IMG/VR virus record: IMGVR_UViG_3300021335_000015
Location: 1-62,215 of that record
From: a virus
Taxonomy: Duplodnaviria > Caudoviricetes
Strand: one strand, 5' to 3'
DNA length: 62,215 bases
A program made the translations under genes and the position numbers. Of the stretch, positions 6,349 through 26,132 are shown piece after piece. The notes below the pieces were generated by a model that was not told the origin of the DNA, made no database searches, and saw only the letters and a list, made by a program, of their open reading frames with translations. Position 1 is the first letter of the stretch. Every line of letters starts with the position of its first letter.

Positions 6349-6400
6349 CTTTGGACAAACCCCCTATATAGTAAATAGGGATTTTTAACAGGACAATATA

Positions 6401-7816
6401 ATGCCAGCTATTGTTAGACAACCATTGCGAACTGAACTCGCAAAACAATTACTGGGAGAGATCCATTCGGAGACGGATCACTACTACATCGGTATAGGCA
6501 AATCGGACAAGTTCGGTGACGCAGACGTAGTGGTTCCGCCAGTGGATTCCCCACAAGAAGAACGTGAGTTCAGACATAATTTGCAATCAATCAAAAAGGT
6601 AGAGGGTGCGATCATGGTCGCCCGTCGAGTCAATTGGACAACAGGTACTCAGTACTACGGTTGGAACGACTCGACGTCACCAAGCGACTCTAACCCATAC
6701 TATGTGCTCACAGACGCGAAAGAAGTTTACATCTGCCTATCACCAGGCATCGATGATAGTGGTGTACATCAACCATCTACGGTAGAACCTAACTATGGGT
6801 TCCACGCACCGATCAGTACAGTGTCAGATCCTAACGATCCAATGTACTTACAACGACTGCACTGGGAACCGTTCACTACCACTGACGGTTACACGTGGAA
6901 GTTCTGTTACTCCTTACGTCCGGAGAACATCTATCAGTTCCTATCATCCAACCACATCCCTGTACAACCTTTAGAAGACACTCTGGCTGGCGGAGACTCT
7001 ATTGAAGATTTACAGTGGCACGTTGCTGATCGTGCGGTTGGTGGAGAAATCATTAGTGTACAAGTAACCGATAGTGGTAGCGGATATGATCCAGCAAACC
7101 CACCGGCTGTTTTGATCGAAGGTAATGGTTATGGTTGTGTTGGTACCGCAGTTGTATCTGGAGACAAGGTCGTAAGAATTGATATGGTGTCTGGTACAAA
7201 CGAAAACACACAGACCACTTATGGTTCTGGATATGGTTGGGCGGAAGTATCAATCGAAGGTAACGCAGAAGCTCGTGCAATCATTACATCTAGTGCCGGT
7301 CTAGGTAAGGACGCTGCAAGTGATTTGAAAACAAGTTCGGTCATGATGAACATCAAACCGAACGGAGATGAGAACGGACGATTCGTTGTCGAGAACTCTT
7401 TCCGTCAGATCGGTGTTATTAAGAACCCGATGCAGCCAAACGGGACAGACGCATACACAGAAGGTGGTGCGAAGTGTCTATCCAGTTTTACCCTAACCAA
7501 CGGTCATGGAGAATCTTCACCATTCCACAACGGAGAGTTGGTGACAAGTTTCCCAGGCGGTGCAGTGGCATATGTTGATGAGTCAATCGGCAACACAGTA
7601 TTCTATCACCAGAATTCAAAAACAGGTTTTGAAGAGTTCGCAGTGGGTGAGTCGATATCTCAAACAGGTGTGGTCGTGACTGCATCCATAGACTTCGTCA
7701 CACGCAAATACGGCATCGATCGATATACAGGCGAGGTTCTTTACATTGAGAACCGACCACGTATACGTCGTGATGCAGAACAACAAGAAGATATCAAGGT
7801 AGTCATCACAGTTTAG
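6401..7816 (+). CDS. gp8: Baseplate wedge subunit gp8
   Basis: YYIGIGK, RRVNWTTG, YYVLT...VYICL, DGYTWKFCY and GEVLYIENRPRIRRDAEQQEDIKVVI motifs. Confidence 0.9.
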   Translation: MPAIVRQPLRTELAKQLLGEIHSETDHYYIGIGKSDKFGDADVVVPPVDSPQEEREFRHNLQSIKKVEGAIMVARRVNWTTGTQYYGWNDSTSPSDSNPYYVLTDAKEVYICLSPGIDDSGVHQPSTVEPNYGFHAPISTVSDPNDPMYLQRLHWEPFTTTDGYTWKFCYSLRPENIYQFLSSNHIPVQPLEDTLAGGDSIEDLQWHVADRAVGGEIISVQVTDSGSGYDPANPPAVLIEGNGYGCVGTAVVSGDKVVRIDMVSGTNENTQTTYGSGYGWAEVSIEGNAEARAIITSSAGLGKDAASDLKTSSVMMNIKPNGDENGRFVVENSFRQIGVIKNPMQPNGTDAYTEGGAKCLSSFTLTNGHGESSPFHNGELVTSFPGGAVAYVDESIGNTVFYHQNSKTGFEEFAVGESISQTGVVVTASIDFVTRKYGIDRYTGEVLYIENRPRIRRDAEQQEDIKVVITV

Positions 7817-7824
7817 GATTAATT

Positions 7825-10800
7825 ATGTCTGATCAAGATTATTTAAAAGAAATAACTGCGTCCACATTCAAGGACGACTACCGCGACTTTTACGATGCAG
7901 ATGATGGGTACCACCGTATCCTATTCAGGGGTGGTCACGCCCTACAGGCACGTGAACTGATCGAACTGCAAACGATCATCCAATCAGAGATCGAACGATT
8001 CGGTAGTAACATATTCAAAGAAGGTGCACTGGTAAATCCAGGCGGTGTCACTGTAGACAACAAAGTTGAGTTTGTCAAGATGACGGAGAGCAGTACTCTC
8101 CCTTCTTTAGATCAACTCCCGGCTGATCGTGAGGTCAAGAACCAAGACGGAGTCAAGGCAAAGGTTCTTGACATCGTGGGTAAGATCGTGTATGTTCAAT
8201 ACATCGATACTACAAGTGGAAATAGTGATGGTGGATCACCTCGTTTCGTAACTGACGACAGACTAGACATCCTAGGTACGGTTGCAACTTCTGGTCGTGC
8301 GGTTCGTGCAGCATTCGCAGAGGGTGACTACTTCGTACAGGGTCACTTCGTACACACAACAGAAAAGAGTTTCATGATCGATCCGGACGGATCACTATCA
8401 GAACACGAAGCGGTCGACATCGGTTTCCGCATCAAGGAAGTTCTGGTCACCGCATCGGAAGATGAGAGTCTCTACGATAACTCAGGTGCACAACCTAATG
8501 TTGGAGCGCCAGGCGCAGACCGATACAAGATCATCCTAGAACCAACGAAACGCACAGATATTGCAAACGATGAGAACTTTGTTTTCGTCGCACGTGTCCT
8601 GAACGGCGTGGTGACTCGTGAGGTCACTAGTCACGATGGATATAATCGAATCAACAAGTTGCTTGCTCAACGCACCAAGGAAGAGTCTGGTGATTATGTT
8701 GCACAGGACTTTACAGCAGTCTTTGAAGATTTCGATGACGCCAACCTACTACTAGATGTTTCTGAGGGAATCGCATACGTCGACGGATATCGACTAGACA
8801 TGGGACGTACAGAGATTGTTGTTCCTAAAGCACAGACCGTGAGACAGAAGGATCGAGAGGTCGTGTCCTCTTACTATGGTAACTGGGTCTATGTAGATGA
8901 GACAAACGCCAATACTACAGGTTTCGGTGACCTATCAAGTTTCGGTGCAGTTACTATTAGAAACGATCAAGGACAAGTAATCGGTGACGCGAACACTCGT
9001 GGCATCGAACAGGACGCAGCGGGTTATCGACTATACATCTTCAACGTGAAGTTAGGTGATGGCGCAACCTTCAGTCAAGCACAGAGTTTTGTCGACAAAA
9101 TAAACGGAGATGAAATCTACCTTGTTGACACCCACATCTATGGTACGATCAACAACAGCCTAATCTTCCCACTACCACAGACAAGTCCAGAAAGAAACAG
9201 TATCGCAACCGCGCAGTATGTGAAGACCGTTGCGAGAGTGAATCAACAACCAGACGGTACAGAGTTGACTCTCGGTGGAGTTGAACCACAGAACTGGGTC
9301 ATCTCAGAAGTCGGTGGTGGCATCTTAGATATAGTCGCTGATAACGCAGGTAAGTTTATAGGGTTGGATGCATCCAGTACCTACAACGTTCTGACTTACG
9401 TTAACGAACCAAACGGCACATACCGTAAGAAGACACTGACAAGAAAGACAGACCTACAGGTGACCACAGACCACGCACAATTGGAATTTGCTACGTCGGT
9501 CGAGACTTCAGTGGTTGATGGTTACGAACTCATTCAGGTGTTACAGAACGACGGTAAAGATGTCACGCACATGTATGAGATGGACGGCGGTCAACGAGAT
9601 AACTTCTACGACTTCGTCTCTTTCAGATTGAAGACTGGGTTCTCTATACCAGATGGAATCACTCTATCATTTGACTTCAAACACTTCGAACATGATGCGG
9701 GAGACTTCTTCTCTGTGACTTCATACTTAGGTGAGGACGCTGGTGACGAAGGTCTCGCATACGAAGACATTCCATCGCACACATACGTCGATGGTACCAC
9801 AGTATCACTACGTGACGTGATCGACTTCCGTCCATCACGTAACACCGATGGTTCATTTCCGACATTGAGTATACCACAGAATGCTTCAGGAATCAACTTA
9901 ATCAATGTAAAATATTACGAACCACGTATTGACATTCTAGTCGCTAACACTAAGGACAGATACGGTGATGTTGGTTTTGGTGAACTACAAGTCGTTCAGG
10001 GTCAGTCAAGTGCAAACCCAAGACCACCAGAAGTTCCAACCGGATCTCTGCCACTATACATCTTCCGTCTGAATCCATACACGTTCAACTCTAGTGACGT
10101 GGTAATGGAGAAACAGACACACAAGCGATTCACCATGAAGGATATCGCTGCTATCGAAACTCGCGTAGATGATCTATACGAGTTGACCACACTGAGTCTC
10201 CTAGAGTCCAACACGCAATCGCTTACTGTTCTTGACGATCAGGGATCTGCGAGAACGAAGGCTGGATTCATCGCGGACAACTTCACGTCGTTCAGTTTCT
10301 CTGACGTGAACAACCCAGATTACCGCGCATCGGTCGAGACGGTATCGGGTCTAATGAAACCATCCTTCCGCGAAAACCTTGTTAGATTGAAACATGATGC
10401 GTCTCAGGGTAATTCAACTCGCACTGGTGATTACGTAACACTACCTTACACACACGTTTCGTTCATAACGCAAGACGTAGCTACTGGTAGTATGAACATC
10501 AATCCGTTCGCGGTCATTACGCAGGAAGGTCACACCACACTATCACCATCAAGTGATCAGTGGGTGGAGACACAGACTTTACCACCAATTATGCAGACGA
10601 CAGTTCGTCGTTCGGTTCCTATCGATCTTGGATTCGAAGACCTTTGGTGGAATGGTATTACAAACGTTAACCGTCCACGCACACGTCAACAGTTCTCTGT
10701 TGAGTCAACGTCTCGTGCGATACAGGAGTTTGTCGGTGAACGTGTAGTCGATACCGAAGTTGTTCCGTTCATGCGTTCACGTAAGATCTCATTCAAGGCA

Positions 10801-12702
10801 GAAGGTCTACGTCCTAACACCAACGTCTTCGCATACTTCGGAAACCGTAACGTATCGCAGTGGTGTAAACGCACAAACTCATTCGTTGAATACTCAACTA
10901 CAGATTCTGAGGTGGGGTCAGAGTTCGCATCGGCAACTCAACACCCAGAAGGAACTAGTCAGTTGGTCACTAATGAGAAGGGAGAGGTATTCGGTGAGTT
11001 CTTCTTACCTAATACAGATCAATTCAGATTCCGTACAGGAACACAGGACTTTGTGATACTGGATGCGGATATTGATACTACCACATCTCGACTATCAAGT
11101 CAACAGCTGAGTGACGCTATGTCGTCATCGTCTGCACCATATACGTCGACCGGATCCATTGAATCTATCCAACGCACGGTCAGAACTACTCGTGTACCTC
11201 AACGCATTCGTGGTCGTCGTGACCCGCTTGCACAGTCGTTCTATGTCGATCCTTCGGAGAACCCTAATGGTATCTTCCTAACTAAGGTACGCGTCTACGT
11301 ACAGAGTAAGGACGATGTCATTCCGATGCAGGTACAGATTCGTCCGGTAGAGAATGGTATACCAACAACTACTATTGTACCCGGCTCTGTCAAGTTTGTC
11401 AAGCCTGCCGACATAACCGTCGCACCTAGTAACGACATCGCGTCAATACGCAGTGCGCCAACTGAAGTCGAGTTCGAAGAACCAGTATACCTAACCGCAG
11501 GTGAAGAGTACGCGATCGTCCTACTTGCCGAGTCGGTTGACTATAACGTATTCGTTGCACAGACCTACGAAGAGATTCTTGGTGGGACTGAGGGTAAGGT
11601 ATCAAAGCAACCTTCTCTTGGTTCACTGTTCATGTCACAGAGTGGTTCAACGTGGACTCCGGACCAAACCAAGGATCTAATGTTCGAACTAGAACGCGCA
11701 GAGTTCCAGACTACAGGTCTTGTTTACCTAGAGAACGCGGTTCTTCCTTCGGTGTCTCTCTCTTCTAATCCGTTCACCGCGATCAACTCCGGTGGTGGTA
11801 TTCAGGTATCTCAAGAAGGTCACGGTTTCTCTAAGGGGGACACAGTAACGATCTCAGGATCGACAGGCGTCGATGTTGACGGTCAACACACGATTGATAG
11901 TGTGACCGCATTCGGGTACACTTTCACTGCGATTGGGTTAGACGCTAATCCGGTTGAAGGAACTTCCTTCGGTGGATCTTCTGCCGTCGCATCGCAGAAC
12001 GTCGTATTCGATGAGTTCACACCACAGGTTTCAAACATCACCCCTAACGGTACCTTTATTGTAAGCAGTATCGAAAGGTCGGCTGCGAAGTCTTACGGTG
12101 CCGCCGACGGAAGGAACGACTCACGTCACTCCTACCAGAAACGTGGTGACCAGTTGACTGAAGACGTGTTCTTAAATCAACTGAACGTTGTGGACTTCCC
12201 TTCTGCAATCGCGACAGCAGACAACAACGTCGACACAAGCAATCAACCAGAGTCAAGTGTTGAGTTGAAGTTGCACCTAGAGACGAACGACAGTAAAGTT
12301 TCTCCGATCATTGATCTACAGAGAACTTCGATCCTTGCACTAGAGAACGTTATTGGTTCTGGTGAGGAAGCACAACACATTACAACACCTATCACGATCG
12401 ACGAATCGTCGGCGGGACTGAAGGTTCTATTGGGTGCGAACCGCCCATCGGATGCATCGATTGAGGTATACGTCAAGACTTCAGCGACAGACGAAGGACT
12501 TTCATCTGCACAATGGACAGAGGTGTTGGTCGACTCAACTGTACCTTCGGATGAGAACGCGTCGGTCTTCCGTGAGTATGAGTACTCATTAGAAGCCGCA
12601 GATCCATTCACTGCATTCCAAGTGAAGGTCGTCATGAAGTCAACCAACTCATCTAAAGTACCAACAGTACGTGACCTACGAGTGATCGCACTGGCAGTAT
12701 AA
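7825..12702 (+). CDS. Large virion structural protein, VrlC/DUF4815-like
   Basis: YHRILFRGGHALQARELIELQ, APGADRYKI, LAQRTKEESGDY, DPLAQSF and C-terminal VPTVRDLRVIAL, typical of the gene after gp8 in marine T4-like phages. Confidence 0.75.
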   Translation: MSDQDYLKEITASTFKDDYRDFYDADDGYHRILFRGGHALQARELIELQTIIQSEIERFGSNIFKEGALVNPGGVTVDNKVEFVKMTESSTLPSLDQLPADREVKNQDGVKAKVLDIVGKIVYVQYIDTTSGNSDGGSPRFVTDDRLDILGTVATSGRAVRAAFAEGDYFVQGHFVHTTEKSFMIDPDGSLSEHEAVDIGFRIKEVLVTASEDESLYDNSGAQPNVGAPGADRYKIILEPTKRTDIANDENFVFVARVLNGVVTREVTSHDGYNRINKLLAQRTKEESGDYVAQDFTAVFEDFDDANLLLDVSEGIAYVDGYRLDMGRTEIVVPKAQTVRQKDREVVSSYYGNWVYVDETNANTTGFGDLSSFGAVTIRNDQGQVIGDANTRGIEQDAAGYRLYIFNVKLGDGATFSQAQSFVDKINGDEIYLVDTHIYGTINNSLIFPLPQTSPERNSIATAQYVKTVARVNQQPDGTELTLGGVEPQNWVISEVGGGILDIVADNAGKFIGLDASSTYNVLTYVNEPNGTYRKKTLTRKTDLQVTTDHAQLEFATSVETSVVDGYELIQVLQNDGKDVTHMYEMDGGQRDNFYDFVSFRLKTGFSIPDGITLSFDFKHFEHDAGDFFSVTSYLGEDAGDEGLAYEDIPSHTYVDGTTVSLRDVIDFRPSRNTDGSFPTLSIPQNASGINLINVKYYEPRIDILVANTKDRYGDVGFGELQVVQGQSSANPRPPEVPTGSLPLYIFRLNPYTFNSSDVVMEKQTHKRFTMKDIAAIETRVDDLYELTTLSLLESNTQSLTVLDDQGSARTKAGFIADNFTSFSFSDVNNPDYRASVETVSGLMKPSFRENLVRLKHDASQGNSTRTGDYVTLPYTHVSFITQDVATGSMNINPFAVITQEGHTTLSPSSDQWVETQTLPPIMQTTVRRSVPIDLGFEDLWWNGITNVNRPRTRQQFSVESTSRAIQEFVGERVVDTEVVPFMRSRKISFKAEGLRPNTNVFAYFGNRNVSQWCKRTNSFVEYSTTDSEVGSEFASATQHPEGTSQLVTNEKGEVFGEFFLPNTDQFRFRTGTQDFVILDADIDTTTSRLSSQQLSDAMSSSSAPYTSTGSIESIQRTVRTTRVPQRIRGRRDPLAQSFYVDPSENPNGIFLTKVRVYVQSKDDVIPMQVQIRPVENGIPTTTIVPGSVKFVKPADITVAPSNDIASIRSAPTEVEFEEPVYLTAGEEYAIVLLAESVDYNVFVAQTYEEILGGTEGKVSKQPSLGSLFMSQSGSTWTPDQTKDLMFELERAEFQTTGLVYLENAVLPSVSLSSNPFTAINSGGGIQVSQEGHGFSKGDTVTISGSTGVDVDGQHTIDSVTAFGYTFTAIGLDANPVEGTSFGGSSAVASQNVVFDEFTPQVSNITPNGTFIVSSIERSAAKSYGAADGRNDSRHSYQKRGDQLTEDVFLNQLNVVDFPSAIATADNNVDTSNQPESSVELKLHLETNDSKVSPIIDLQRTSILALENVIGSGEEAQHITTPITIDESSAGLKVLLGANRPSDASIEVYVKTSATDEGLSSAQWTEVLVDSTVPSDENASVFREYEYSLEAADPFTAFQVKVVMKSTNSSKVPTVRDLRVIALAV

Positions 12703-12932
12703 TGAGTAGATATCAAAAGGTAGAAGGGCACACCAGCCTAGTAAGAGACACAAGGACAGGGGCAATCATCAATACCAACAGGTCAGAGATTGCAAGAGCG
12801 AGAAAAAGAAAAGAGGCAAAGAAACAAGAGGCGGAAAGACTCGACACGTTATCAAAAGAAGTCTCCTCATTGCAGAGCGAGATTAGTGAGATAAAAGATT
12901 TGTTGGTTCGTCTAGTGGAGAATAAAGAATGA
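12702..12932 (+). CDS. Small conserved T4-like hypothetical protein with C-terminal coiled coil
   Basis: KVEGHTSLVRDTRTGAIINTN...EISEIKDLL; translationally coupled to neighbours. Confidence 0.7.
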   Translation: MSRYQKVEGHTSLVRDTRTGAIINTNRSEIARARKRKEAKKQEAERLDTLSKEVSSLQSEISEIKDLLVRLVENKE

Positions 12933-14515
12933 CTGATACAATACAAACAGTACATCTCGCCGACAACATCAACGCGGCGTTTGACAAGATCAATGAGAAC
13001 TTCGAAGGTCTCGCTGACGGGACTATTGTAGTGCCACCGCCAACGGACATGTCCATCGGTGACCTACAAGATGTTACGCTTACCTCTCTTTCCAATGGAG
13101 AGGTGTTGAAGTGGAACGGTTCCTCATGGACAAACCTACCGGACAGCGGATCTGGCGGTGGCACTAATATCTCTACTGATAGTGACCTAAACCAATACAT
13201 CACCAACTTCCTAGACTCTGCTTTCTTCATTACAGTCATCAACGAAGAGTACTTAGAACAATTCAATATTACTACCGATGTCACATACACCGATTCGGAT
13301 GTTCAAGCAAACGCCTCTGCAATCTTCACACTTGAATCTCGTATCGATGCAACCGACTCTGGTATTACTGTTCTGTCTCAGGCGATCATCGACACTCAAG
13401 CATCACTAGAAAATATTACAATAGGTGGTATCGACTCAGATGTGCTTGCAGACGCGATCGCGAGTGCGAACACTACAGTTATCTCACGCATTGATGCAAA
13501 CAGTGATGGCATCTCCGTGATGTCTGGAGTGATCGATAGTGTGGCCGCTGATCTATTACTGACAACCCAAGACCTTAGTGATTACATTTCATTAAGCACT
13601 AATGCTCGTAATGAGTTGTCAACTAGAATCACTGCAAACGACAGTGGTCTGTCCGCACTGATCTCAGACGTGACAGAACTAGGACTTGAGTTGGATCAGT
13701 TCATTGCTGGTGGTATTAACATCACACCAGAACAAATAACCGCCGCAATCGGTGGTGCGTTAGATTCACTTACACTTCGCATGGATGCGGACAGTGACAA
13801 ACTTGTAATCGAGGCGGCAAAGATTGTAAATCTTGAAACAGGTCTGACTGCACAAAATAGCGATCTTGGTTCGCAGATCAATGCGGTATCTAATGCACAG
13901 TCTTCTCTAGTGTCTCGTACAGAGTTCGACTCTGCTGAAGGTAGAATCACTACACTCGCAGAAGATATTGTTACCCTAAACAGTCAGGTAGATATTACAA
14001 ACGCAGACGGTAGTCTATCGCAAGCCATCGCCGATACAGAGTCTACATTACGTGGAGAAATCACTGTAGTCGATGGTCGAATCACTTCAGTCGAAACATC
14101 GTTGACGAATACTCTCAATGCCAAGATCGACAGCGATATTGCGGAGGCGACTAGCACCTTGACTGCATTGATTGACTCGGCAGGCAACACAGTATCCACA
14201 TGGGGTATCAGTCTTGTTGCAGGAACAGAAGACAATCCTAAAGTCGCGGGTATCAAGTTCGGTAACAATGGTACCACTTCCGACTTTGCAATCACAACCG
14301 ATACATTCAAGATCTTAAACTCAGATGGAACTGATGCCGGTACTGCTCCGTTCAGTGTTGTGAATGGTGTGGTTGAAATGTCAGGTGCTAAGGTTACTGG
14401 AGAACTAGACGTAACCACATCTGACGCGTCAGGATCTATGAACATTACGGGCAACCTAATTACTATTAGTGATGCCTCTGGCACACCTCGTGTCAAACTT
14501 GGGAAAATTGTATAA
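12929..14515 (+). CDS. Shorter DSD-rich fibre, paralogous to 1534-6348, with gpJ-like C-terminus
   Basis: KINENF N-terminus, IGDLQDV...NGEVLKWNGSSWTN motif, DSD shaft, ends ITISDASGTPRVKLGKI. Confidence 0.7.
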   Translation: MTDTIQTVHLADNINAAFDKINENFEGLADGTIVVPPPTDMSIGDLQDVTLTSLSNGEVLKWNGSSWTNLPDSGSGGGTNISTDSDLNQYITNFLDSAFFITVINEEYLEQFNITTDVTYTDSDVQANASAIFTLESRIDATDSGITVLSQAIIDTQASLENITIGGIDSDVLADAIASANTTVISRIDANSDGISVMSGVIDSVAADLLLTTQDLSDYISLSTNARNELSTRITANDSGLSALISDVTELGLELDQFIAGGINITPEQITAAIGGALDSLTLRMDADSDKLVIEAAKIVNLETGLTAQNSDLGSQINAVSNAQSSLVSRTEFDSAEGRITTLAEDIVTLNSQVDITNADGSLSQAIADTESTLRGEITVVDGRITSVETSLTNTLNAKIDSDIAEATSTLTALIDSAGNTVSTWGISLVAGTEDNPKVAGIKFGNNGTTSDFAITTDTFKILNSDGTDAGTAPFSVVNGVVEMSGAKVTGELDVTTSDASGSMNITGNLITISDASGTPRVKLGKIV

Positions 14516-15644: not shown

Positions 15645-16073
15645 ATGATTTATTATATCGCAGTTATTAGAAATAGTCAAGTAGAAAGTTTAAAGTTTGC
15701 TAATGCCGACCCCGAACCTGAAGGTGTACGAGAGGATGGGTCGACTATAGTACACATCGATTTCCCCATTGAAGACAGATACGACTTTGTCAGTACTTGG
15801 TGCTGGGACGGTGATTGGTATCAGAGAGACCCGCGACCAAATCGTTTTGCAGAGTGGGATGGAAGTCAGTGGGTATGGGATGATGCAGACTTACTTAATG
15901 AATTACGCAATGCGAGAAATGCAAGATTGTCCGCATGTGATTGGACCCGAATGGACGACAATGGTTTGTCAGAGACAAAACGAAAGAAGTGGGCAACATA
16001 CCGTCAATCTTTACGTGACATCACAAAAAACTATGACTCTTTGGATTCTGTAGTTTGGCCTGATAGTCCATAG
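15645..16073 (+). CDS. Tail fibre assembly chaperone
   Basis: LRNARNARLSACDWT...WATYRQSLRDIT...VVWP motif. Confidence 0.8.
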   Translation: MIYYIAVIRNSQVESLKFANADPEPEGVREDGSTIVHIDFPIEDRYDFVSTWCWDGDWYQRDPRPNRFAEWDGSQWVWDDADLLNELRNARNARLSACDWTRMDDNGLSETKRKKWATYRQSLRDITKNYDSLDSVVWPDSP

Positions 16074-16082
16074 GGGTAGTTC

Positions 16083-16391
16083 ATGTCTCAGTATGGGATC
16101 GAGGTTCGTGGACCTAACAATTCAACACCAGTACTGTCGAGTAGACTACGTGCATCTAACGTAGTCGTTTACTCTCCGTTCGATTTAGACCCGAACGAAA
16201 GTGTCACTATCTCGTGCGCGGACGCCAATGACTCCACAAGAGTTGCAATAACCTTGATGGGTCCAAACACGCCTTTTGGAAATTACCTACGAGGTGTTAT
16301 TGTATCGAATAGAACCTCCACCAACTTCACCATAACGAATGCAGATCCATTCGCCAGATCTGGCACTGTACTCGCTTTTAGGATTGCATAA
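16083..16391 (+). CDS. Small fibre-tip accessory protein, cassette 2
   Basis: MSQYGIEV start, 102 aa, ends VLAFRIA, parallel to 14516-14830. Confidence 0.55.
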   Translation: MSQYGIEVRGPNNSTPVLSSRLRASNVVVYSPFDLDPNESVTISCADANDSTRVAITLMGPNTPFGNYLRGVIVSNRTSTNFTITNADPFARSGTVLAFRIA

Positions 16392-19300
16392 TGAGTTATG
16401 GTTTTAGAATCACGGGGAACGACACCGCACCCTTCACAGTACTCGATACCGAATTAGATACTCTGGGACTAGTGGTCACAGAGAAAGGTCGAGCGAGTGT
16501 CATCAACCCATCATACCCACTAGGACCATACGATTTCTTGTTCGTCAAGAATCCATCTGCGCCTGGTAATTCAAACTTTGAAAGCCAAACCCAATATCCC
16601 GCACCACAGACCGTTGTCTATTGGGCGTCTCCGCAGTATTATTTCATGCACACCAGCAGCACCACAGGTGCGATAAGCTTCAAGGGTGGTGCATATGATT
16701 ACTACCCAGATCCATACAACCCAAGAAACCTGCCTAGACTTGCTTTGGCGACTGGGTGGGACGTAGAGTTTGATTACTTTATTGTTCGTCGATCTACTGA
16801 TATCATATCAGAAGGACTAGGTCGCGATGACAACTACGGTCTACAGGTAAGGAGTAAGTTTTATACGGACGCCGATCCAATTCTTGCGTATGACTCCAGA
16901 TCCGCGATCACCAACGATACATTTTACATAGAAACCTATCTACCTCCGGCTAGTCAGTTCTATACACCAGCTTCGCAGAGTCAGGGATATTACTCAAGTG
17001 TGAGTTTTAGTTCTGGATGTTACGTAAACATCAACTGGACCAATAGAACCATCGGCGGAGACTTCCCTTCGGGGGTCAACTTCATTCAGGCTATCGGCAT
17101 GACTGCGACTAGGGCGTGGGCGGTTACTGGTCTTTTAGAGTTAGAAGATGGTGGACGATTCTTCATCGATGGAAACAGTACCGCGATCCTTGCTGTCAAA
17201 TTAAGAGACCCTTCTAACGTATACCAGAACACGGGTGCTACTGACGCTGACGATGAAGAACAAGAAACCGCACCCGATGGAGATGACGTAGATACAAATT
17301 ATACAGGGTCTCTTGCATATGTTGCGGGGGACACTTTCACTGAAGGTGGAACCATCCAATTCGATGCGACCGTTAACACTCCTAACGTAGGATACCACAC
17401 CAAAATATTCAGAGTCACTGGTAGTGGAGATGATCTGGATGCAATCACTCATGTCTTTACTGGGGGATTCGGCGCAGAGAGAATTAGCATAACAGCAAAT
17501 AATGATTCTGTCAATGATAGTCGTACAGTTTCGTATATGAGAACCCAAAACTACGTGGGCAATTATACAACAACAAGAGACTCATCATACACACGAGGTT
17601 TCTTAGGAAACTTTGCGGGTGACTATACTCGCAACTTTGCAGGAAACTATACTCGCAACAGTTCTTACAACAGGAACTTCGCAGGTAATTATACTAGATC
17701 AAGTGCATACGGCAGAACTTTAAATTTCCAGAGAGACTTCACCAGAAATTATTTAAGAACTCGCGTGTCTAGTTATTCACGTGGAATTGTTTCTTCTAGG
17801 TCTAGTGTTTATTCTAGGATTAGGTTGGCGTATAGTCAGAACAGTTTCGTTGGAAACTATACCAGAATTTTGCAAGTACCAACCGCATTCACCAGAACAG
17901 GTGAGTACGTCGGTAACTACACTCCAACGAAATCTACGGCATATTTCACTCCGGTCACTGGACCTGAAGATCCAGGCGTAATTTACGTAAACATTCCCGC
18001 ACCATTTGTCGGAAACTATAACAGGACATTTGTCGGCAATTATTCAGGCGCATATACCAGAGACTTCACCAGAGGGGTTTCTTATGAAGGCAACTACTCT
18101 CGTAACTTCGCTGGAAACTTCGCTGGTAATTATTCTAGGAATCTATTTTTCTCTCGTAACTTCGTAGGTGATTACGCTCGCGGAGTGGTGAGGGTCTCTT
18201 CATATACTAGGACCAGAGTTACAAATTATACTGGAGACTTCCAAAGAGGATCTACCTATGTGGGTAACTACAGTAGAAACTTTGTGGGTAACTTCGGCAG
18301 AACTATCGCAACGAATAAAACATACAGTAGAACTAGAATAAGTGTTTACACTCCTCTAGCGGATTATGCTAGAACGAGTACACGTACCTTTGTGGGCAGT
18401 CGCACACAAGGATTCATCGGAAACTACAATAGATCATTTATTGGAGACTACACCAGAGGTAGTACTTACGCTAGAAACTTCGTGGGTAACTACACAAGAG
18501 GTAGTACTACCACAGCAAATTACAACAGAACCTTTGTAGGAAACTATAGTAGGACAGAAACTGGAGTCGACCCATATCAATACTCCAGTACCTACGGTTC
18601 AGAGTATCAGTGGATAGTACGACCAGACAATAACGTTGACGACGATGGGTTTGGCACTGGGGGCAGTGGATGGGTATTAGAGGTAAAATGGAATGGAACC
18701 AATGTCTTTGTTGGAGACTATACCACACAGTCTAACGCTCTTGCTGTGACTGTTGTACAGAACCCAGGCCAAACCGAATGGTATTGGAAGGGCGATATCG
18801 TAACTTCCAATCCTTTCTTTGGTTCCTTGTTTGAGGTAGCAAACACTCAAAGTGGATTTGCGCCAACAAATACAACAACCACCAGTTACACTAGAGATAG
18901 GGTCAGTTCCTATTCAAGAACTGTCGGTGGTGCTACTCCATACTCTAGGACCAGACAGTCTACGTACAGTAGAACAATTAACTCCACTCGAAGTAGAGTT
19001 TCTGCATACACGAGAACTCGCAATGTAACCTATAATACAAATAGAGTATCCAGTTATGTGGGCAACTTTACTGGACCTTCTAGTCGATTTATATATGATC
19101 CCGATGCGCAAGGATTGATTGAAGTCTTTAATACTTACACTCGTGAATTCGTAGGTAACTATACGGGACAATACACCAGACAGTCCGGCAGAATTGTAAC
19201 TAGGACCAGTGCCTATTCAAGGACTAGAACTTCGACTTTAAATTCCACGAGAGTGTTCACTGGAAATTTTGCAGGAAACTATAGCAGGAACATAACAGAC

Positions 19301-20494
19301 AATCCTACGTATAATAGAACCAGAAGTTCAGTTTATTCTAGGAGTAGTACATACGCTAGAACCTCAACCAGAACTCGCACAAGCTCTTACACTAGGAACA
19401 GAACCGCTAATCCAGTGAGGACATCCTCGTACTCTGGAACATACAACAGAAACAGGGTGAGTTCGTATACCAGAGATAGGTACTCTACATTCACTAGAAC
19501 TTCTACAAGGTTAATGCACTTTGCAGGTAATACTCCTACAGAGACCGACTATACGAGAACTCGTGTATCCTCTTATCTCGGAAACTACACGGGTGAATAC
19601 ACAAGAGATCTATACTTCACAGGTAACCCAACATACAACAGGAATTTTGTGGGCGAATATGCGAGAACCAGCGTAGGAACATTTACTAGATCTTCTGGAT
19701 ACTCAAGAACCTTGACTTCTAACAGAACTAGAACCAGTGGATACTCAAGAACCTTGACTTCGACTAGAACTAGAACCAGTAATTACACCAGAGAAAGACA
19801 AAGCACGGCAGGGGAAAGTTACATCCGAACGTTTACAGGAAACTTTGTCGGAAACTATATCGGTAATTATACAAGGACTAGTGTCGGAACAAGCTCTGGA
19901 GTTTCTGAGGTCAAGTGGAAAGGTGAACAATTCCTCATGGAACTCCGTGTGGGATCTGCCGGAGAAGCATTGACTTTTGGACAGAACGACGCAAACTCCA
20001 TCATACTTGATTCTAAAACATTTACATTGTTTGATAACGATGCAGGTACAGTTCTTGCGACTACAGGAGTCTCAGTATCGGACACAGACACCACTCACAA
20101 ACTTCTTGTCGACTTCAAGTCCAGTGGCAATCAAGTTGCGAGTGCAAGGGTCACTACGGTTGTCGGTGGAGTGTCTTCGATTATGGCAGGTCCGTTTGAT
20201 CTAGTAGATGGATTGAATGAGGTTACAGTAACCAATGCTCCTCAAGTTGTGTCGGGTGCAGTCGTTACCTACTATATACATGTGAACAATAACGGGACTT
20301 CCGGATACTGGGTGCCTGGCGGACAATACACCGTATCGCGTGTTTACACCAATGATAATGATGGACAAGATCCGCCGCCAGGAGGAACGCCAACAGATAG
20401 TGATGGAACAAATCCACCGGACGGTCCAACAGATCCGGGCAATCCAGATGGACCGGGCGATGAAACCCCAGATCCTGGCTCAGAATTCGATTAG
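16391..20494 (+). CDS. Fibre-tip protein carrying a mirror-paired R/Y/T/G/N/F tetrapeptide hairpin insert
   Basis: N-terminus resembles 14827-15639 (YGFRITG, DYFIV, YGLQVR..YDSR); central repeats FVGN/YTRT/RVSS surround a 110-aa non-repetitive tip. Confidence 0.7.
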   Translation: MSYGFRITGNDTAPFTVLDTELDTLGLVVTEKGRASVINPSYPLGPYDFLFVKNPSAPGNSNFESQTQYPAPQTVVYWASPQYYFMHTSSTTGAISFKGGAYDYYPDPYNPRNLPRLALATGWDVEFDYFIVRRSTDIISEGLGRDDNYGLQVRSKFYTDADPILAYDSRSAITNDTFYIETYLPPASQFYTPASQSQGYYSSVSFSSGCYVNINWTNRTIGGDFPSGVNFIQAIGMTATRAWAVTGLLELEDGGRFFIDGNSTAILAVKLRDPSNVYQNTGATDADDEEQETAPDGDDVDTNYTGSLAYVAGDTFTEGGTIQFDATVNTPNVGYHTKIFRVTGSGDDLDAITHVFTGGFGAERISITANNDSVNDSRTVSYMRTQNYVGNYTTTRDSSYTRGFLGNFAGDYTRNFAGNYTRNSSYNRNFAGNYTRSSAYGRTLNFQRDFTRNYLRTRVSSYSRGIVSSRSSVYSRIRLAYSQNSFVGNYTRILQVPTAFTRTGEYVGNYTPTKSTAYFTPVTGPEDPGVIYVNIPAPFVGNYNRTFVGNYSGAYTRDFTRGVSYEGNYSRNFAGNFAGNYSRNLFFSRNFVGDYARGVVRVSSYTRTRVTNYTGDFQRGSTYVGNYSRNFVGNFGRTIATNKTYSRTRISVYTPLADYARTSTRTFVGSRTQGFIGNYNRSFIGDYTRGSTYARNFVGNYTRGSTTTANYNRTFVGNYSRTETGVDPYQYSSTYGSEYQWIVRPDNNVDDDGFGTGGSGWVLEVKWNGTNVFVGDYTTQSNALAVTVVQNPGQTEWYWKGDIVTSNPFFGSLFEVANTQSGFAPTNTTTTSYTRDRVSSYSRTVGGATPYSRTRQSTYSRTINSTRSRVSAYTRTRNVTYNTNRVSSYVGNFTGPSSRFIYDPDAQGLIEVFNTYTREFVGNYTGQYTRQSGRIVTRTSAYSRTRTSTLNSTRVFTGNFAGNYSRNITDNPTYNRTRSSVYSRSSTYARTSTRTRTSSYTRNRTANPVRTSSYSGTYNRNRVSSYTRDRYSTFTRTSTRLMHFAGNTPTETDYTRTRVSSYLGNYTGEYTRDLYFTGNPTYNRNFVGEYARTSVGTFTRSSGYSRTLTSNRTRTSGYSRTLTSTRTRTSNYTRERQSTAGESYIRTFTGNFVGNYIGNYTRTSVGTSSGVSEVKWKGEQFLMELRVGSAGEALTFGQNDANSIILDSKTFTLFDNDAGTVLATTGVSVSDTDTTHKLLVDFKSSGNQVASARVTTVVGGVSSIMAGPFDLVDGLNEVTVTNAPQVVSGAVVTYYIHVNNNGTSGYWVPGGQYTVSRVYTNDNDGQDPPPGGTPTDSDGTNPPDGPTDPGNPDGPGDETPDPGSEFD

Positions 20495-20508: not shown

Positions 20509-20991
20509 ATGGATAATTTAAAATACATTGCATACATCAATCCAAACACTGGTAAGATAGTACGATTGACTGTGCCGCAGTACAAGGCAGATCCTGAAGG
20601 ACTAGATCAGGACGGTCACTTTGTTGTACACGTCAGCTCGGCAAACTTACCAGAGAACTGTGATGACTTGCGTTACTTCATGGACAATCACTGGTACGAC
20701 ACCGAAAATCACAAATTCATATTTGTCGGTCAACCATGCAACAGTTATGCGACTTGGAGTCTGGAGAAAGGATGGTGGGATTGGGATCCTGAACTAGTAT
20801 ATGCAGACATTCGTAAAACAAGGAATGCGTTGTTGAGTGCTTGTGATTGGACTCAACAAATGGATGTGCCTCTAAGTGAATCAAAACTCCAAGAATGGGT
20901 GACATACCGTCAACAACTGCGTAATATTACAGACAATTTACCAGATGATATTTTGTCAGTAAATGATGTGGTTTGGCCGGTCAGTCCATAA
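20509..20991 (+). CDS. Tail fibre assembly chaperone, paralog of 15645-16073
   Basis: IRKTRNALLSACDWT...WVTYRQQLRNIT...VVWP. Confidence 0.8.
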   Translation: MDNLKYIAYINPNTGKIVRLTVPQYKADPEGLDQDGHFVVHVSSANLPENCDDLRYFMDNHWYDTENHKFIFVGQPCNSYATWSLEKGWWDWDPELVYADIRKTRNALLSACDWTQQMDVPLSESKLQEWVTYRQQLRNITDNLPDDILSVNDVVWPVSP

Positions 20992-21116: not shown

Positions 21117-24100
21117 GTGTCAGCATCTAGTATACCACTAAAAATTCAAAATGCTAATGGTGACCTACAGGAATTCACTCCATCGGATGAGTTGTATCTA
21201 TCCTATGCAGTGGGAGAAGCGTTAGTTGCGGCCGCATCTAACGACGTTGGTAATATCAGTTTAACTGATGGCCAATCAATCGGTTCGTTTGTAGATTCTT
21301 ACTACAATGAAATATCTGGTACCCACCCTGCTTCACAGATCACGGGTACCTCAGTGACCACCACTCTGAAGCAAGTGAGTGGCCCAGCAGACGAATCCGG
21401 TGCAGACTTTGTCCGCCCAGTAGGTTATTACGACGTTGCTCCAAACCCAGGCTTCTACGAAATGGTAGACGGGGATATGGACAACTTAGCAGGTCGTGTT
21501 CTATCTAACTTAGTACAGAACGACTATATCGGTACTTTCAAACTGTCCGCTACTCAACCAAGTGCAGACTATACAAAGTTTATTGACTCTGTATTCTCTG
21601 ACACTCACGGTAACGGCGGTGCAGGTACCGTAGTAACAAACTACCACATTTGGATGCGTACTTCTATGACGGCAGTTGCTCCAGTTCGTCCAGTAGCGAC
21701 AAGCTACGACGGTACTGGTTTCAACGGTCTACGTGAAATGACAGATGCCCAGATCCAGTATACACTAGGTCAACGCATCAAGTCACTTCGTGCTACTTCC
21801 GGAGCGATTGGTTCATACCAACTACGTTCAGCAGCACAAGGCGCACCAACAGTCCCAGGCACATGGGTGTCTGTAGGTACTGCACAGAACACACGTCGTA
21901 CACCAGTTGACGTTGCATACGCAAGAACTCGCGTATCTTCATACAACCGTGCACGTGTTTCTGCATACACTCGTACTCGTGTATCTTCATACACGCGTGA
22001 CAGTGTAGATAATTTTGCTCGTACCTTTGTAGGAGACTACACGGGTGCATACTCACGTGACTTCGTAGGAAACTACTCGCGTGACTTTGTTGGGAACTAC
22101 TCACGTACTCGCCCATCATCGTACTCAGGTACATACGCACGTACTCGCGTTTCATCATATTCACGTACTCGCCTAACAGCGTTCACTGGATACTTCGCGG
22201 GAACTTACTCACGTGCTCGTGTTTCGGTTTACACTCGTAACCGCGTAACACCATTTACTGGTACATTCTCACGTAACCGTATATCATCATACACTCGTGG
22301 TCGTGTATCAACCTACTCAGATACATACTCGCGTAATCGTATATCATCATACGCTGCAGCTTATGTTCGTACTCGCGTATCTTCATACACTGGAACTTAT
22401 TCGGGAACATACTCCCGTCTACGTGTCTCTGCGTATGCTGGAACATACACGCGTAACCGTGTTTCTTCTTATGCTGGAACATACACACGAACTCGTGTAT
22501 CTACTTACGCAACTGACTTTACCCGCACCCGTGAAGAGAACTTCGCAGGGACTTACACTGGTTACTATACTGGCGTATTCTCTCGTGCTCGTGTATCAAC
22601 ATATACGCGTAACCGTGTAACAGGTTTCGCAGGTAACTTCATCGGAAACTACTCTCGCAACTTCCAAGGTAACTATTCACGTAACTTCGTGGGTAACTAC
22701 TCTCGTGGATTTGCTGGTAACTACGTAGGTAACTACTCTCGCGTATCAACACGCACATCAACTCGCACACGTTACAGTGCTTACGCAAGAACACGCATCA
22801 CTAACTACGTTGGTGACTTTGCTCGTGATCGCGTCACTAACTTTGCGGGTAACTTCGTGGGCAACTACGCTCGCACCTTCGTAGGTAACTACGGTGGTAA
22901 CTTTATCGGAAACTACGCTCGTGACTTCGTTGGAAACTTCGTTGGTAACTACGCTCGCGCATATGTAGGTAACTACTCTCGCGGATTCGTAGGCAACTAC
23001 GGTCGTAACTACCTTGGTAACTTTGTCGGTAACTACAGCCGTAACTTCCTTGGTGACTTCACCGGAAACTACGCTCGTGGTTTCGTCGGTGACTTCGTTG
23101 GAGATTTCGTAGGTAACTACGCACGTACTTCAACTCGTACATCGACTCGCACACGTTACTCGGCTTATGCTCGTACTCGCGCAACGAACTACACACGTAA
23201 CCGTGGTTCTGCTTACGCTCGTACATCTACTCGTACTCGTTACAGTGCATACGCTCGTACTCGTGCGACAAACTATACAAGAACTCGTGGTTCAGCTTAC
23301 GCACGTACTCGTATCACTAACTACGTTGGTGACTTCGTTCGTACATCGACTCGTAGCAGACCATCTACGTTCTCTTACGCACGTACTCTGTACTACGCAG
23401 GTAACTTCGTAGGCAACTATGGTCGTACTCGTGTAACTAACTACACTCGTGCTTCAGCGGTAGGTGTAACTTATACAGGTAACTACACACGTAACCTATA
23501 CTACGTTGGTAACTACGCTCGTGGATACGCAGGTAACTACGTTGGTGATTATGCTCGTAACCGTGCATTCTCATACGTTGGTAACTATGCTCGTAACCGC
23601 GCATTCTCATATGTCGGTAACTACGCACGTACTCGTGTAACTAACTACACTCGCACATCAACTGGTACTGGCACATATACTCGTAACCGTCCGTACTCAT
23701 TCGTAGGTAACTACACAAGAACTCGTGCGACGAACTATACTCGTACATCAACTGGTACTGGTACATATACTCGTAACCGTGCAGCTTCCTATGCTGGTGA
23801 TTTCGCAGGTAACTTCACGGGTAACTTTACACGTACTGGATCATCGACTCGTGTTTCTACTGGTGGATCGGGTACCTACGTACAAGACCAATACCTAACG
23901 GGTAAAGGTGGTGATACTTACTGGGGTTGGAACGGATACTCGAACCAAGTTGAAATTAAACACAGACTGAAGGGTAACTTTACTGTCACTAGTGGTGTAA
24001 ACGCTAACACTACTATGGTTACCGTTTCTACGGGTGAGACTTTCTGGCGTGGTAATGCAAGAACGAGTGGTACTTATGTACGTTACGGTCTGACATATTA

Positions 24101-26132
24101 CCAAGACGGTACTACGGACTATACTGGTAACTTTACAAATACTACATCATATACTAGCACATCTACTCGCACATCAACACGCACACGTGCAGCTACTTAC
24201 ACAGGTAACTACGCACGTACTTTATACTACACTGGTGATTTCGTAGGTAACTTTGGTGGTACATATACCCGTACTCGTACTGGTAACTACACTGGTAACT
24301 ACACTCGTACTCTATACTACACTGGTGATTTCGTAGGTAACTTTGGTGGTACGTATACTCGTACTCGTACTGGTGCATACACTGGCAACTACGCTCGTAC
24401 TCGTACTGGTAACTACACTGGTAACTACGCACGTACTTCGACTCGCACACGTTACAGTGCTTACGCACGTACTCGCGTTGCGACAGGTACTTACACACGT
24501 AACCGCGCTGCGACACTATACTACACTGGTGACTTTGTAGGTAACTTCGCAGGTGCATACACACGCACATCAACACGTACATCTACTAACACTGGTTACT
24601 ACACACGCACACTAACTTACGCAGGTAACTACGTGGGTAACTATGCGACAACGTTCACTGGCGACTTCGTCGGTAACTATACGCGTAACTTTGCGGGTGA
24701 CTATGTTGGTAACTTCGTAGGTAACTATACACGTGGATTTGCTGGTGACTTCGTAGGCAACTACGCTCGCACATTCGTGGGTGATTTCGTAGGTAACTTC
24801 GTAGGTAACTATGCACGTGGATACGCTGGTAACTTTGCTGGCGACTTCGTCGGTAACTACGCACGTACTCGTGTAACTAACTACACTCGTACTCGTAACT
24901 CTGCGTACACACGTAACCGCACACAGAACTTTGCGAACTCTTACTCTCGCACACGTGAAACAAACTTCACTGGTTACTTCACACGTAACCGTGCATCCGC
25001 ATACGCTCGTACTCGTTACAGCGCATACGCTCGCACACGTGTAACTAACTACGTCGGTGACTTCACACGCGATTCAACCCGCACATCTACTCGTAACCGT
25101 GGTTCGGCTTACGCACGTGATCGTGTAACCAACTTCGCTGGTAACTTCGTAGGAAACTACGCAACAACGTTTACCGGAGACTTTGTTGGTAACTACGCAC
25201 GTGGATTTGCTGGTGACTTTGCTGGTAACTTTACTGGTGACTATGCTCGTACTTCAACGCGCACTCGTTACTCTGCATACGCACGTACTCGTGTATCTGC
25301 ATACGTCCGCAACCGTGGATCATCATACACCCGTGACCGTGTAACTAACTTTGCTGGTGACTTCGTAGGCAACTACGCTCGCACCTTCACTGGTAACTAC
25401 ACACGTCAGTTCGCTGGTGAGTATGTTGGTGATTACGTAGGAACGTTCGCAGGTAACTACGTAGGCAACTTCAGCCGTGACTTCGGTGGAAACTACGTTG
25501 GTAACTACGCTCGTGGATTTGCTGGTAACTATGTTGGTAACTACAACCGTAGTTTCGCAGGTGAGTACACTGGTGCTTACTCTGGTGCATACTCTCGTAA
25601 CTTCGTGGGTGACTACACAGGTAACTACAACCGTGGATTCGCAGGTGAGTATGTGGGCAACTACGCAACCACATTTACTGGTAACTACTCTCGTGGATTC
25701 TCCGGTCAGTACACACGCGACTTCGCAGGTGACTTCGTGGGTAACTACTCAAGAACATTTGCTGGTGAGTACACTGGTGCTTATGCGCGTGACTTTACAG
25801 GTAACTTCGTGGGTAACTACTCGCGTGACTTCGTCGGTGAGTACACTGGTGCTTACTCTCGTGACTTCGTAGGTAACTACTCTCGTGTCCGTGTATCTGC
25901 ATACGCACGTATCAGACCATCTGCTTACTCAGGTGCATACACACGTGACCGTGTTTCTTCTTACCTAGGAAACTTCATCGGTAACTACTCTCGTGACTTT
26001 GGTGGTAACTACACCCGTGAGTTTGCTGGAAACTACGCACGTAGTTTCGTCGGTAACTACATCGGTCAGACCATCTCTGGTACAGAGACACACGTTACAG
26101 ATGTGTACACACTATACGTAAGGGTTGCATAA
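21117..26132 (+). CDS. Giant self-complementary hairpin fibre protein (267-aa base, 650-aa arm, 84-aa tip, 650-aa arm, 20-aa tail)
   Basis: GTG start after AGAGAG, late promoter upstream, strongly biased codons; tetrapeptide units match in mirror order. Confidence 0.85.
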   Translation: MSASSIPLKIQNANGDLQEFTPSDELYLSYAVGEALVAAASNDVGNISLTDGQSIGSFVDSYYNEISGTHPASQITGTSVTTTLKQVSGPADESGADFVRPVGYYDVAPNPGFYEMVDGDMDNLAGRVLSNLVQNDYIGTFKLSATQPSADYTKFIDSVFSDTHGNGGAGTVVTNYHIWMRTSMTAVAPVRPVATSYDGTGFNGLREMTDAQIQYTLGQRIKSLRATSGAIGSYQLRSAAQGAPTVPGTWVSVGTAQNTRRTPVDVAYARTRVSSYNRARVSAYTRTRVSSYTRDSVDNFARTFVGDYTGAYSRDFVGNYSRDFVGNYSRTRPSSYSGTYARTRVSSYSRTRLTAFTGYFAGTYSRARVSVYTRNRVTPFTGTFSRNRISSYTRGRVSTYSDTYSRNRISSYAAAYVRTRVSSYTGTYSGTYSRLRVSAYAGTYTRNRVSSYAGTYTRTRVSTYATDFTRTREENFAGTYTGYYTGVFSRARVSTYTRNRVTGFAGNFIGNYSRNFQGNYSRNFVGNYSRGFAGNYVGNYSRVSTRTSTRTRYSAYARTRITNYVGDFARDRVTNFAGNFVGNYARTFVGNYGGNFIGNYARDFVGNFVGNYARAYVGNYSRGFVGNYGRNYLGNFVGNYSRNFLGDFTGNYARGFVGDFVGDFVGNYARTSTRTSTRTRYSAYARTRATNYTRNRGSAYARTSTRTRYSAYARTRATNYTRTRGSAYARTRITNYVGDFVRTSTRSRPSTFSYARTLYYAGNFVGNYGRTRVTNYTRASAVGVTYTGNYTRNLYYVGNYARGYAGNYVGDYARNRAFSYVGNYARNRAFSYVGNYARTRVTNYTRTSTGTGTYTRNRPYSFVGNYTRTRATNYTRTSTGTGTYTRNRAASYAGDFAGNFTGNFTRTGSSTRVSTGGSGTYVQDQYLTGKGGDTYWGWNGYSNQVEIKHRLKGNFTVTSGVNANTTMVTVSTGETFWRGNARTSGTYVRYGLTYYQDGTTDYTGNFTNTTSYTSTSTRTSTRTRAATYTGNYARTLYYTGDFVGNFGGTYTRTRTGNYTGNYTRTLYYTGDFVGNFGGTYTRTRTGAYTGNYARTRTGNYTGNYARTSTRTRYSAYARTRVATGTYTRNRAATLYYTGDFVGNFAGAYTRTSTRTSTNTGYYTRTLTYAGNYVGNYATTFTGDFVGNYTRNFAGDYVGNFVGNYTRGFAGDFVGNYARTFVGDFVGNFVGNYARGYAGNFAGDFVGNYARTRVTNYTRTRNSAYTRNRTQNFANSYSRTRETNFTGYFTRNRASAYARTRYSAYARTRVTNYVGDFTRDSTRTSTRNRGSAYARDRVTNFAGNFVGNYATTFTGDFVGNYARGFAGDFAGNFTGDYARTSTRTRYSAYARTRVSAYVRNRGSSYTRDRVTNFAGDFVGNYARTFTGNYTRQFAGEYVGDYVGTFAGNYVGNFSRDFGGNYVGNYARGFAGNYVGNYNRSFAGEYTGAYSGAYSRNFVGDYTGNYNRGFAGEYVGNYATTFTGNYSRGFSGQYTRDFAGDFVGNYSRTFAGEYTGAYARDFTGNFVGNYSRDFVGEYTGAYSRDFVGNYSRVRVSAYARIRPSAYSGAYTRDRVSSYLGNFIGNYSRDFGGNYTREFAGNYARSFVGNYIGQTISGTETHVTDVYTLYVRVA

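Follow-up and report, generated by a model that had tools for sequence, protein, structure and literature searches.

Mirror-complementary repeat arms in a fibre-block protein of a T4-like marine phage contig: a probable fold-back stem-and-tip shaft

The window analysed here, which is the whole of a linear virus record of 62,215 bases (IMGVR_UViG_3300021335_000015; estimated completeness 34%), is a contig of a T4-like (Kyanoviridae-like) marine phage, whose nearest phage record, the Kyanoviridae phage C48C1, shares 80% nucleotide identity with it across the block extending from the terminase to the capsid gene. Among its open reading frames (ORFs), the fibre gene encoding protein P0001 (16391..20494, + strand; 1367 amino acids (aa), as given by the ORF list and its translation) carries an insert of 797 aa (residues 373-1169; 17507..19897, +) made of an N-arm, a tip domain and a C-arm. 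Read outwards from the tip, the short repeat units of one arm are the mirror complement of those of the other; the insert occupies a single site of its host protein, the lengths of the two arms are matched across long members of the family, and pairs of close relatives differ by matched insertions or deletions (indels) on the two arms. We consider it likely that this insert forms the fold-back stem-and-tip shaft of a tail fibre or baseplate-attached protein, and the best reading of P0001 is that it works like the needle of T4 gp37 without being a member of the gp37 family.

Mirror order of the repeat units

The arms of P0001 alternate a four-residue YxRx unit with units of two other types, namely F-type units of the form [F/Y]-x-G-x (e.g., FVGN) and R-type units of the form R-x-[S/T]-x (e.g., RVSS), besides which some STRx and YxGx units occur. 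The whole protein contains 57 YxRx, 35 F-type and 32 R-type units. The N-arm (residues 382-722; 17534..18556, +; 341 aa) holds 32 YxRx, 19 F-type and 7 R-type units and has a net charge of +32, and the C-arm (residues 833-1171; 18887..19903, +; 339 aa) holds 25 YxRx, 17 R-type, 12 F-type and 8 STRx units and has a net charge of +37. Thr, Arg, Ser, Tyr, Asn and Gly account for 67-75% of arm residues, lysine is almost absent, and the 680 residues of the two arms include a single His, no Cys and no HxH motif. These strongly cationic arms stand against host domains and a tip with an isoelectric point (pI) of ~4.1-4.2. Arm sequence of P0001 also matches, with expectation values (E) down to 4e-18, the product of the neighbouring fibre gene, P0002 (21117..26132, +; 1671 aa), which according to its register statistics carries the stronger instance of the same code and serves here as the reference.

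An earlier sequence-only reading had proposed that nucleotides 17533-19890, which correspond to residues 381-1167 of ORF 16391-20494, encode a mirror-paired hairpin with its tip at 18557-18886 (residues 723-832). The mirror order of the arms is real. The N-arm was compared with the reversed C-arm by gapped local alignment, with F-type facing R-type units rewarded and like facing like penalised, and the antiparallel orientation reached a score of 81.0, against 52.5 for the parallel one. This score was attained neither by permutation of the F/R labels (49.1 +/- 7.6; 0/60), nor by shuffling of the units (38.2 +/- 6.2; 0/60), nor by permutation within each arm (49.5 +/- 6.4; 0/100). The alignment runs outwards from the tip over nearly the whole of both arms (N 400-722 against C 1147-833) and contains 70 F-R residue pairs and not one F-F or R-R pair. 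A search of the protein against itself in antiparallel orientation, blind to the position of the tip, placed the turn exactly at 722/833. With scoring blind to the F/R distinction, the antiparallel alignment of the arms still gave 70 complementary and 4 same-type pairs.

The pairs FVGN/RVSS, FVGN/RQST, FIGD/RVSA, FVGS/RVSS, FVGD/RSSV and FAGN/RTSS were all recovered by a parser of four-residue units, and the pairing of two 6-mers was found at residues 705-710 and 845-850. The arm-arm alignment has three gaps, two of which coincide with one-sided bulges that had been named beforehand. One is a side loop of the N-arm (residues 516-538; 17936..18004, +), which has similar counterparts in homologues and looks like a small beta-hairpin bulge, and the other is a side loop of the C-arm (residues 897-915; 19079..19135, +). 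The residue-number parity of the YxR motifs is constant between side loops and switches only across these two one-sided loops, a pattern that fits extended strands. At the DNA level, the stretch 17533-19890 has no inverted repeats and its direct repeats reach only 60-85% identity, indicating that the units are kept at the level of the protein and are not a DNA artefact.

P0002 displays the same order more strictly. In a single ungapped antiparallel register, 200 residue pairs are complementary and 36 are of the same type, no parallel offset nets more than 44, and the gapped alignment scores 225 against a null of 119 +/- 12 (0/100), with 200 F-R, 40 F-F and no R-R pairs. A residue matrix learned from P0002 and applied to P0001 yielded 74.1 in the antiparallel and 53.1 in the parallel orientation. 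The orthologue of P0002 in phage C48C1 (L001 9526-19569) shares its N- and C-termini and, with 3347 aa, is twice as long; it was aligned after compression of eight long non-repeat stretches (one of them the tip) besides the N-terminal domain. Thus treated, it forms one hairpin from residue ~267 to residue 3331 with its apex at 1293/1374, and includes 325 F-R, 24 F-F and no R-R pairs (score 328 against 218 +/- 14; 0/30). A branched arrangement of nested hairpins was considered for this giant and rejected, as the compressed sequence aligns as one hairpin. Seven long stretches without repeats, of 47-245 aa each, break up its C-arm, an observation that suggests that whole domains are tolerated as bulges on one arm. 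Around residues 2005-2155, ~75 residues that span the last part of a globular domain and the repeat units beginning after it are present in near-identical tandem, which points to a recent duplication or else to misassembly of the deposited record. Two further orthologues of P0002 from viral contigs gave 0/40 permutations each. No R-R pair was found in any of the 13 proteins compared; F-F pairs occur in them wherever there is a surplus of F units, and STRx units, too, are found opposite F units.

A single-site insert and its relatives

The host protein into which the arms and tip are set consists of an acidic N-domain (residues 1-372; 16391..17506, +; pI 4.2), conserved at 33-88% identity in 11 homologues, and of a C-domain (residues 1172-1367; 19904..20491, +), likewise acidic, which starts at a conserved SE-x-x-W-x-GE motif and ends in a proline-rich tail. 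A query with the N-domain (residues 1-380) retrieved 11 homologues of near-equal length, and an exhaustive search of 1.84 billion representatives found only 16 representatives. Four of these are short forms of 630-648 aa that are almost devoid of repeats (1-2 YxRx each). When these were aligned with the 11 long forms, all four displayed one contiguous gap, from the end of the N-domain to the start of the C-domain, where the long forms carry 557-904 aa in 11 of 11 cases, residues 373-1169 in P0001. In the short forms the N-domain is thus joined straight to the C-domain. Since the insert is present or absent as one block at a domain junction, its two ends must meet in space, as those of a fold-back shaft would. 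The arrangement is one of two segments flanking a tip and inserted at one site of a fibre protein, its topology being read from sequence.

The long forms vary in a manner that couples the two arms. In 16 long members, arms measure 220-415 aa and the lengths of N-arm and C-arm are correlated (r = 0.86, a value that overstates independence because the proteins are related). Comparison of close pairs, in which indels of at least 6 aa were counted, is more direct. P0010 and P0011 (85% identical) differ by only two arm indels, each of 38 aa, of which the one in the N-arm lies 147 aa ahead of the tip and the one in the C-arm 117 aa beyond it; both look like tandem duplications. P0022 and the protein of locus L013 (59% identical) differ by arm indels of 36 aa located 205 aa before the tip and 36 aa located 233 aa after it. 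No arm indel separates P0012 from P0013.

The mirror signal was evaluated with 100 permutations for each of 21 repeat-bearing proteins of the P0001 family (20 long forms and the 737-aa P0025). Nine reached 0/100 (P0001, P0003-P0007, P0009, P0013 and L013), of which P0004-P0006 are close relatives of P0001, and four others gave 2-5/100 (P0012, P0021, L017 and L019). Beyond this family, a query with the N-arm matched at least 179 protein clusters of 751-2393 aa (E <= 1e-5), none of which bears a name other than 'hypothetical protein'. Among the matches listed, 105 were new repeat proteins; 47 of these were at 0/20 permutations, where ~5 would be expected by chance, the antiparallel score exceeded the parallel one in 93, and only 9 had a negative z. 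Grouped by their first 200 residues, the repeat proteins fall into a P0002-like host family (83 members including P0002; 35 of 82 tested at 0/20) and a P0001-like host family (21 members including P0001; 12 of 20 tested at 0/20), with three odd proteins outside both (0/3 at 0/20).

These figures support, and at the same time delimit, the claim that the hairpin behaves as an insertable module hosted by different proteins. The N-domains of P0001 and P0002 are indeed unrelated (best BLASTP E 2.1), and a block of 797 aa is absent as one piece from all four short forms; apart from the three odd proteins, the repeats are confined to two host families encoded by neighbouring genes, so that 'insertable' holds for two hosts and not for many.

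A fold-back shaft and the competing explanations

P0001 is encoded in a fibre block next to a fibre-assembly gene, as expected of a T4-like tail fibre, and a tail-fibre or baseplate-attached protein is the best reading of its sequence and surroundings. Its host N- and C-domains would sit side by side at the base, with the insert projecting as a shaft, probably within a trimer. The chain would run outwards as the N-arm, traverse the tip domain and come back as the C-arm, packed antiparallel on the N-arm. Both arms are likely extended beta-type chains, because the four-residue frame, within each stretch between side loops, shifts by two residues and because AlphaFold2 (AF2) draws long strands, at low confidence, in this region. 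YxRx units would face each other as constant rungs, and each R-bearing unit (RxSx or STRx) would always be found opposite a Phe/Tyr-x-Gly-x unit and never opposite another R unit, R-R contacts being possibly excluded by charge and bulk and F-F contacts tolerated. The order of F and R along an arm, which is aperiodic and mirrored in the partner arm, would fix one register, such that zipping could not slip. Side loops would bulge out and leave the pairing unbroken, and length would be adjusted via matched duplications on both arms. The tip, as the distal and variable domain, would probably meet the host cell and bind a receptor. Extrapolation from the proportions of the gp37 stem gives a predicted shaft length of several tens of nm to ~100 nm.

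The closest solved precedent is the needle of T4 gp37. Domain D11 of gp37 comprises a stem (residues 882-931 and 960-1009) and a tip (residues 932-959) and is inserted in the collar domain D10 (PMC6957217). The needle measures ~150 by 25 Angstrom (PMC3004832), is held by seven iron sites built from the HxH motif (PMC6957217, PMC6116203), and corresponds to PDB entry 2XGF as cited in PMC6116203. As far as its sequence shows, P0001 shares with gp37 an out-and-back stem that carries a tip subdomain and interrupts the host part of a tail fibre; its gene likewise belongs to a T4-like tail-fibre block and has a small gene for an assembly chaperone alongside. They differ in scale, as the gp37 stem of 50 + 50 residues with a 28-residue tip is set against 341 + 339 residues and a 110-residue tip in P0001, whose arms are ~7x longer; the arms of the P0002 orthologue of C48C1 reach ~1000 residues, and shafts overall would be 7-20x longer than the gp37 needle. 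They also differ in the HxH iron-site motifs, present in gp37 and absent from the arms of P0001, and no sequence or fold similarity of P0001 to gp37 or related fibres was detected. We know of no two-letter unit code for gp37.

Several results weigh against pairing of the arms by the code as formulated here. The unit classes were drawn up only after the pattern had been seen. The parallel control of the F/R-blind alignment is enriched as well (47 complementary against 6 same-type pairs), and part of the signal of P0001 is block composition, because F-type units predominate in the tip-proximal N-arm and R-type units in the tip-proximal C-arm. No register stands out in an ungapped scan of P0001, where the net count peaks at 25 in the antiparallel and at 32 in the parallel orientation; this bears out the earlier judgement that its match is looser than that of 21117-26132. 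The matrix learned from P0002, a check that had been suggested with unit-shuffled arms as its null, comfortably surpassed that null (23.9 +/- 3.7; 0/50 reach 74.1), and with a stricter slot permutation in which YxRx units were kept fixed (61.9 +/- 5.6) its score was reached once in 50, a borderline result. Both arms being cationic, electrostatics give no help to their pairing. As for structure prediction, the AF2 monomer model of residues 596-980, built on a five-sequence alignment, drew long strands at a mean predicted local distance difference test score (pLDDT) of 33 and is unusable, and the arm flanks of the tip model remain below a pLDDT of 50. Between P0016 and L019 the arms have grown unevenly, by 53 aa in the N-arm and by 108 aa in the C-arm, where two pieces of 19 and 30 aa hold side-loop-like sequence. 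Finally, 8 of the 21 family members show a weak signal or none (out of 100 permutations, P0008 14, P0010 31, P0011 50, P0016 29, P0017 9, P0022 14, P0025 10 and L020 8), and it is weak as well in 47 of the 105 other repeat proteins (at least 2/20 permutations reach the score), which implies that the two-letter code as defined here is not the whole rule.

The parallel control, the slot permutation and the non-significant family members would all be accounted for if the arms did not pair at all and the signal resulted from periodicity combined with block composition, F units being abundant in the N-arm and R units in the C-arm close to the tip, and from an alignment optimised over many registers. 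We regard this as very improbable, considering that permutations within the arms preserve composition and spacing and yet never reached the observed score, that the tip-blind apex falls on the tip, that arm lengths match and two independent pairs of relatives carry equal indels, and that the number of other proteins at 0/20 far exceeds the chance expectation; composition blocks would, moreover, leave the absence of the whole block from the short forms unexplained. It is somewhat less improbable, but still unlikely, that the arms touch and interleave in another repeat fold, such as a beta-solenoid or a triple beta-helix-like stack, unrelated to gp37 and possibly much shorter. YxRx and a variable unit together make a period of 8 residues, reminiscent of the octapeptide repeat in the triple beta-helix of T4 gp5 with its alternating inward and outward positions (PMC3004832). 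The lack of any sequence or fold link to gp37, and of HxH motifs, would also suit such a fold, and the C-terminal beta-helix of gp5 is, like P0001, part of a fibrous phage tail protein with a short 8-residue repeat. It differs in that three parallel chains are wound together, with no returning segment, no mirror partner and another consensus. The triple beta-helices known so far are parallel structures for which a partner segment in mirror order is unnecessary, and the two-residue phase shifts and one-sided loops of P0001 fit paired strands well.

Pairing could also take place between chains, antiparallel subunits laying the N-arm of one on the C-arm of the other without any turn, which would produce a rod twice as long with its 'tips' at mid-rod. 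Mirror statistics and matched indels would be satisfied equally by such an arrangement, much as a palindromic nucleic acid may form either a duplex or a hairpin. The short forms speak against it, for their N-domain runs straight into the C-domain, so that the ends of the insert adjoin in one chain; attachment domains at both ends of a rod would be hard to square with a tail-fibre cassette, and in gp37, the precedent with a solved structure, a single chain turns back on itself. We deem inter-chain pairing improbable, a little more so than another repeat fold and slightly less so than the lack of any pairing, and retain a fold-back shaft as the probable structure of the insert.

We hold with more reserve, and with not quite even confidence, the broader proposal that the arms embody a true protein pairing code. 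A small alphabet of four-residue units would then mediate antiparallel complementarity, zipping 700 to >2000 repeat residues in one register, tolerating bulged loops and inserted domains, and growing or shrinking by matched duplications; this would be the protein counterpart of a stem-loop and a fold class without a solved member. The nucleic-acid stem-loop is an analogy only. It shares with P0001 antiparallel complementarity, an apex loop, one-sided bulges and compensatory changes, and differs in that P0001 is a protein with four-residue 'letters' and an asymmetric rule, F-F being tolerated and R-R never seen. If the arms pair, they would provide a simple and evolvable control of fibre length, in which matched duplications lengthen the shaft and the whole module is present or absent at one site. 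If the code holds, an aperiodic two-letter pattern would solve the problem of register slippage in long repeats, a fibre architecture without Pfam family or PDB relative would extend across at least 179 clusters of 'hypothetical proteins', and structural virologists and protein designers would gain a template for programmable beta-strand pairing.

Tip domain, gene cassette and neighbouring genes

The tip domain of P0001 (residues 723-832; 18557..18886, +; 110 aa), which is flanked by the blind hairpin apex, is acidic and has a small beta-rich core at residues ~737-822. In the structure prediction of tip-proximal fragments, suggested together with the hairpin, this core alone came out with moderate confidence. 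Modelled with 24-residue flanks by AF2, the core comprises seven strands at a moderately confident pLDDT of 75-88, and the arms gave no usable model. A Foldseek search of the tip model against the PDB and BFVD returned no match at E <= 0.001; the best lead, a phage Gp38-domain protein, was not significant (E 0.16) and was rejected as a fold match. Comparison of the tips of the P0001 and P0002 modules gave a BLASTP E of 0.047 and, with hhalign, a probability of 36% (E 3.8e-4 over 58 columns), which is only suggestive of homology. Tips vary among relatives and the host domains are conserved, a distribution that makes the tip a likely determinant of host range in marine T4-like phages. In P0022 and L013, the last ~70 residues form an extra domain resembling the tips, with strands of the W-x-G-T-x-V-Y and Y-x-x-G-D-Y type, which suggests that the tip fold has also been reused as a C-terminal add-on in these two proteins.

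Searches of reference collections placed P0001 close to no characterised protein. Neither P0001 nor P0002 matched a Pfam family, and among PHROGs P0001 had no match and P0002 two weak ones to families of unknown function. The phmmer search of P0001 against PDB sequences returned nothing at E <= 1, those made with P0002 and with a short-form profile gave nothing meaningful, and the best score in the ESM Atlas (0.76) was under the level of chance matches. Megablast of the P0001 gene against phage records gave no match, and by tblastn only the repeats of phage C48C1 matched. No account of such repeats, of the fold-back architecture or of phage C48C1 was found in the literature, which was covered largely without subscription journals and supplements.

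The long ORFs of the window all lie on the + strand. PHROG matches identify baseplate-wedge and fibre genes at 1534-14515 and, downstream of P0001, the genes for the neck, large terminase, sheath, portal and major capsid proteins, between which two groups the P0001 gene is located. Directly upstream of it, a 102-aa ORF (16083..16391, +) appears as a conserved partner, which tblastn detected at the same place in most short- and long-form loci; it has no match in PHROGs. Directly downstream lies a gene for a Tfa-like protein of 160 aa (20509..20991, +; phrog_4912, E 3.1e-14), and a paralogue 35% identical to it, encoding 142 aa, precedes the cassette (15645..16073, +; phrog_4912, E 2.1e-16). Both belong by their matches to the lambda Tfa / T4 gp38 class (phrog_4912, phrog_4697), the similarity being limited to the C-terminal ~60 residues, and both flank fibre genes. 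T4 gp38 is required for the folding of gp37 (PMC3004832). A chaperone role specific to the hairpin was considered for the Tfa-like gene and rejected, as this gene is found behind short and long forms alike; it presumably serves the host protein, and a link to the repeat shaft is not evident.

A scan of viral contigs yielded 24 loci, with short forms in L002-L011 and long forms in L013-L025. The cassette common to both kinds comprises a homologue of the 102-aa ORF (detected at most loci), the fibre gene and, after it, a Tfa-like gene homologous to 20509-20991. Four short-form loci were examined further (L002, L003, L007 and L009), and in each of them a P0002-like repeat giant comes directly next. 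In the long-form loci L017 and L020, the Tfa-like gene is followed by a repeat-free protein of ~450 aa and not by a P0002-like giant, from which it appears that the two hairpin genes are not invariably found side by side.

Compared with C48C1, the window contains an extra cassette made of the 102-aa ORF, the P0001 gene and one Tfa-like gene, and its two Tfa-like genes are each 33-37% identical to the single one of C48C1. Two other giant ORFs, 29923-35835 (1970 aa) and 7825-12702 (1625 aa), are further members of the fibre/baseplate block. Both contain fewer than 8 YxRx units, the threshold of the scan, and the latter has a very strong match to phrog_358, a family of unknown function.

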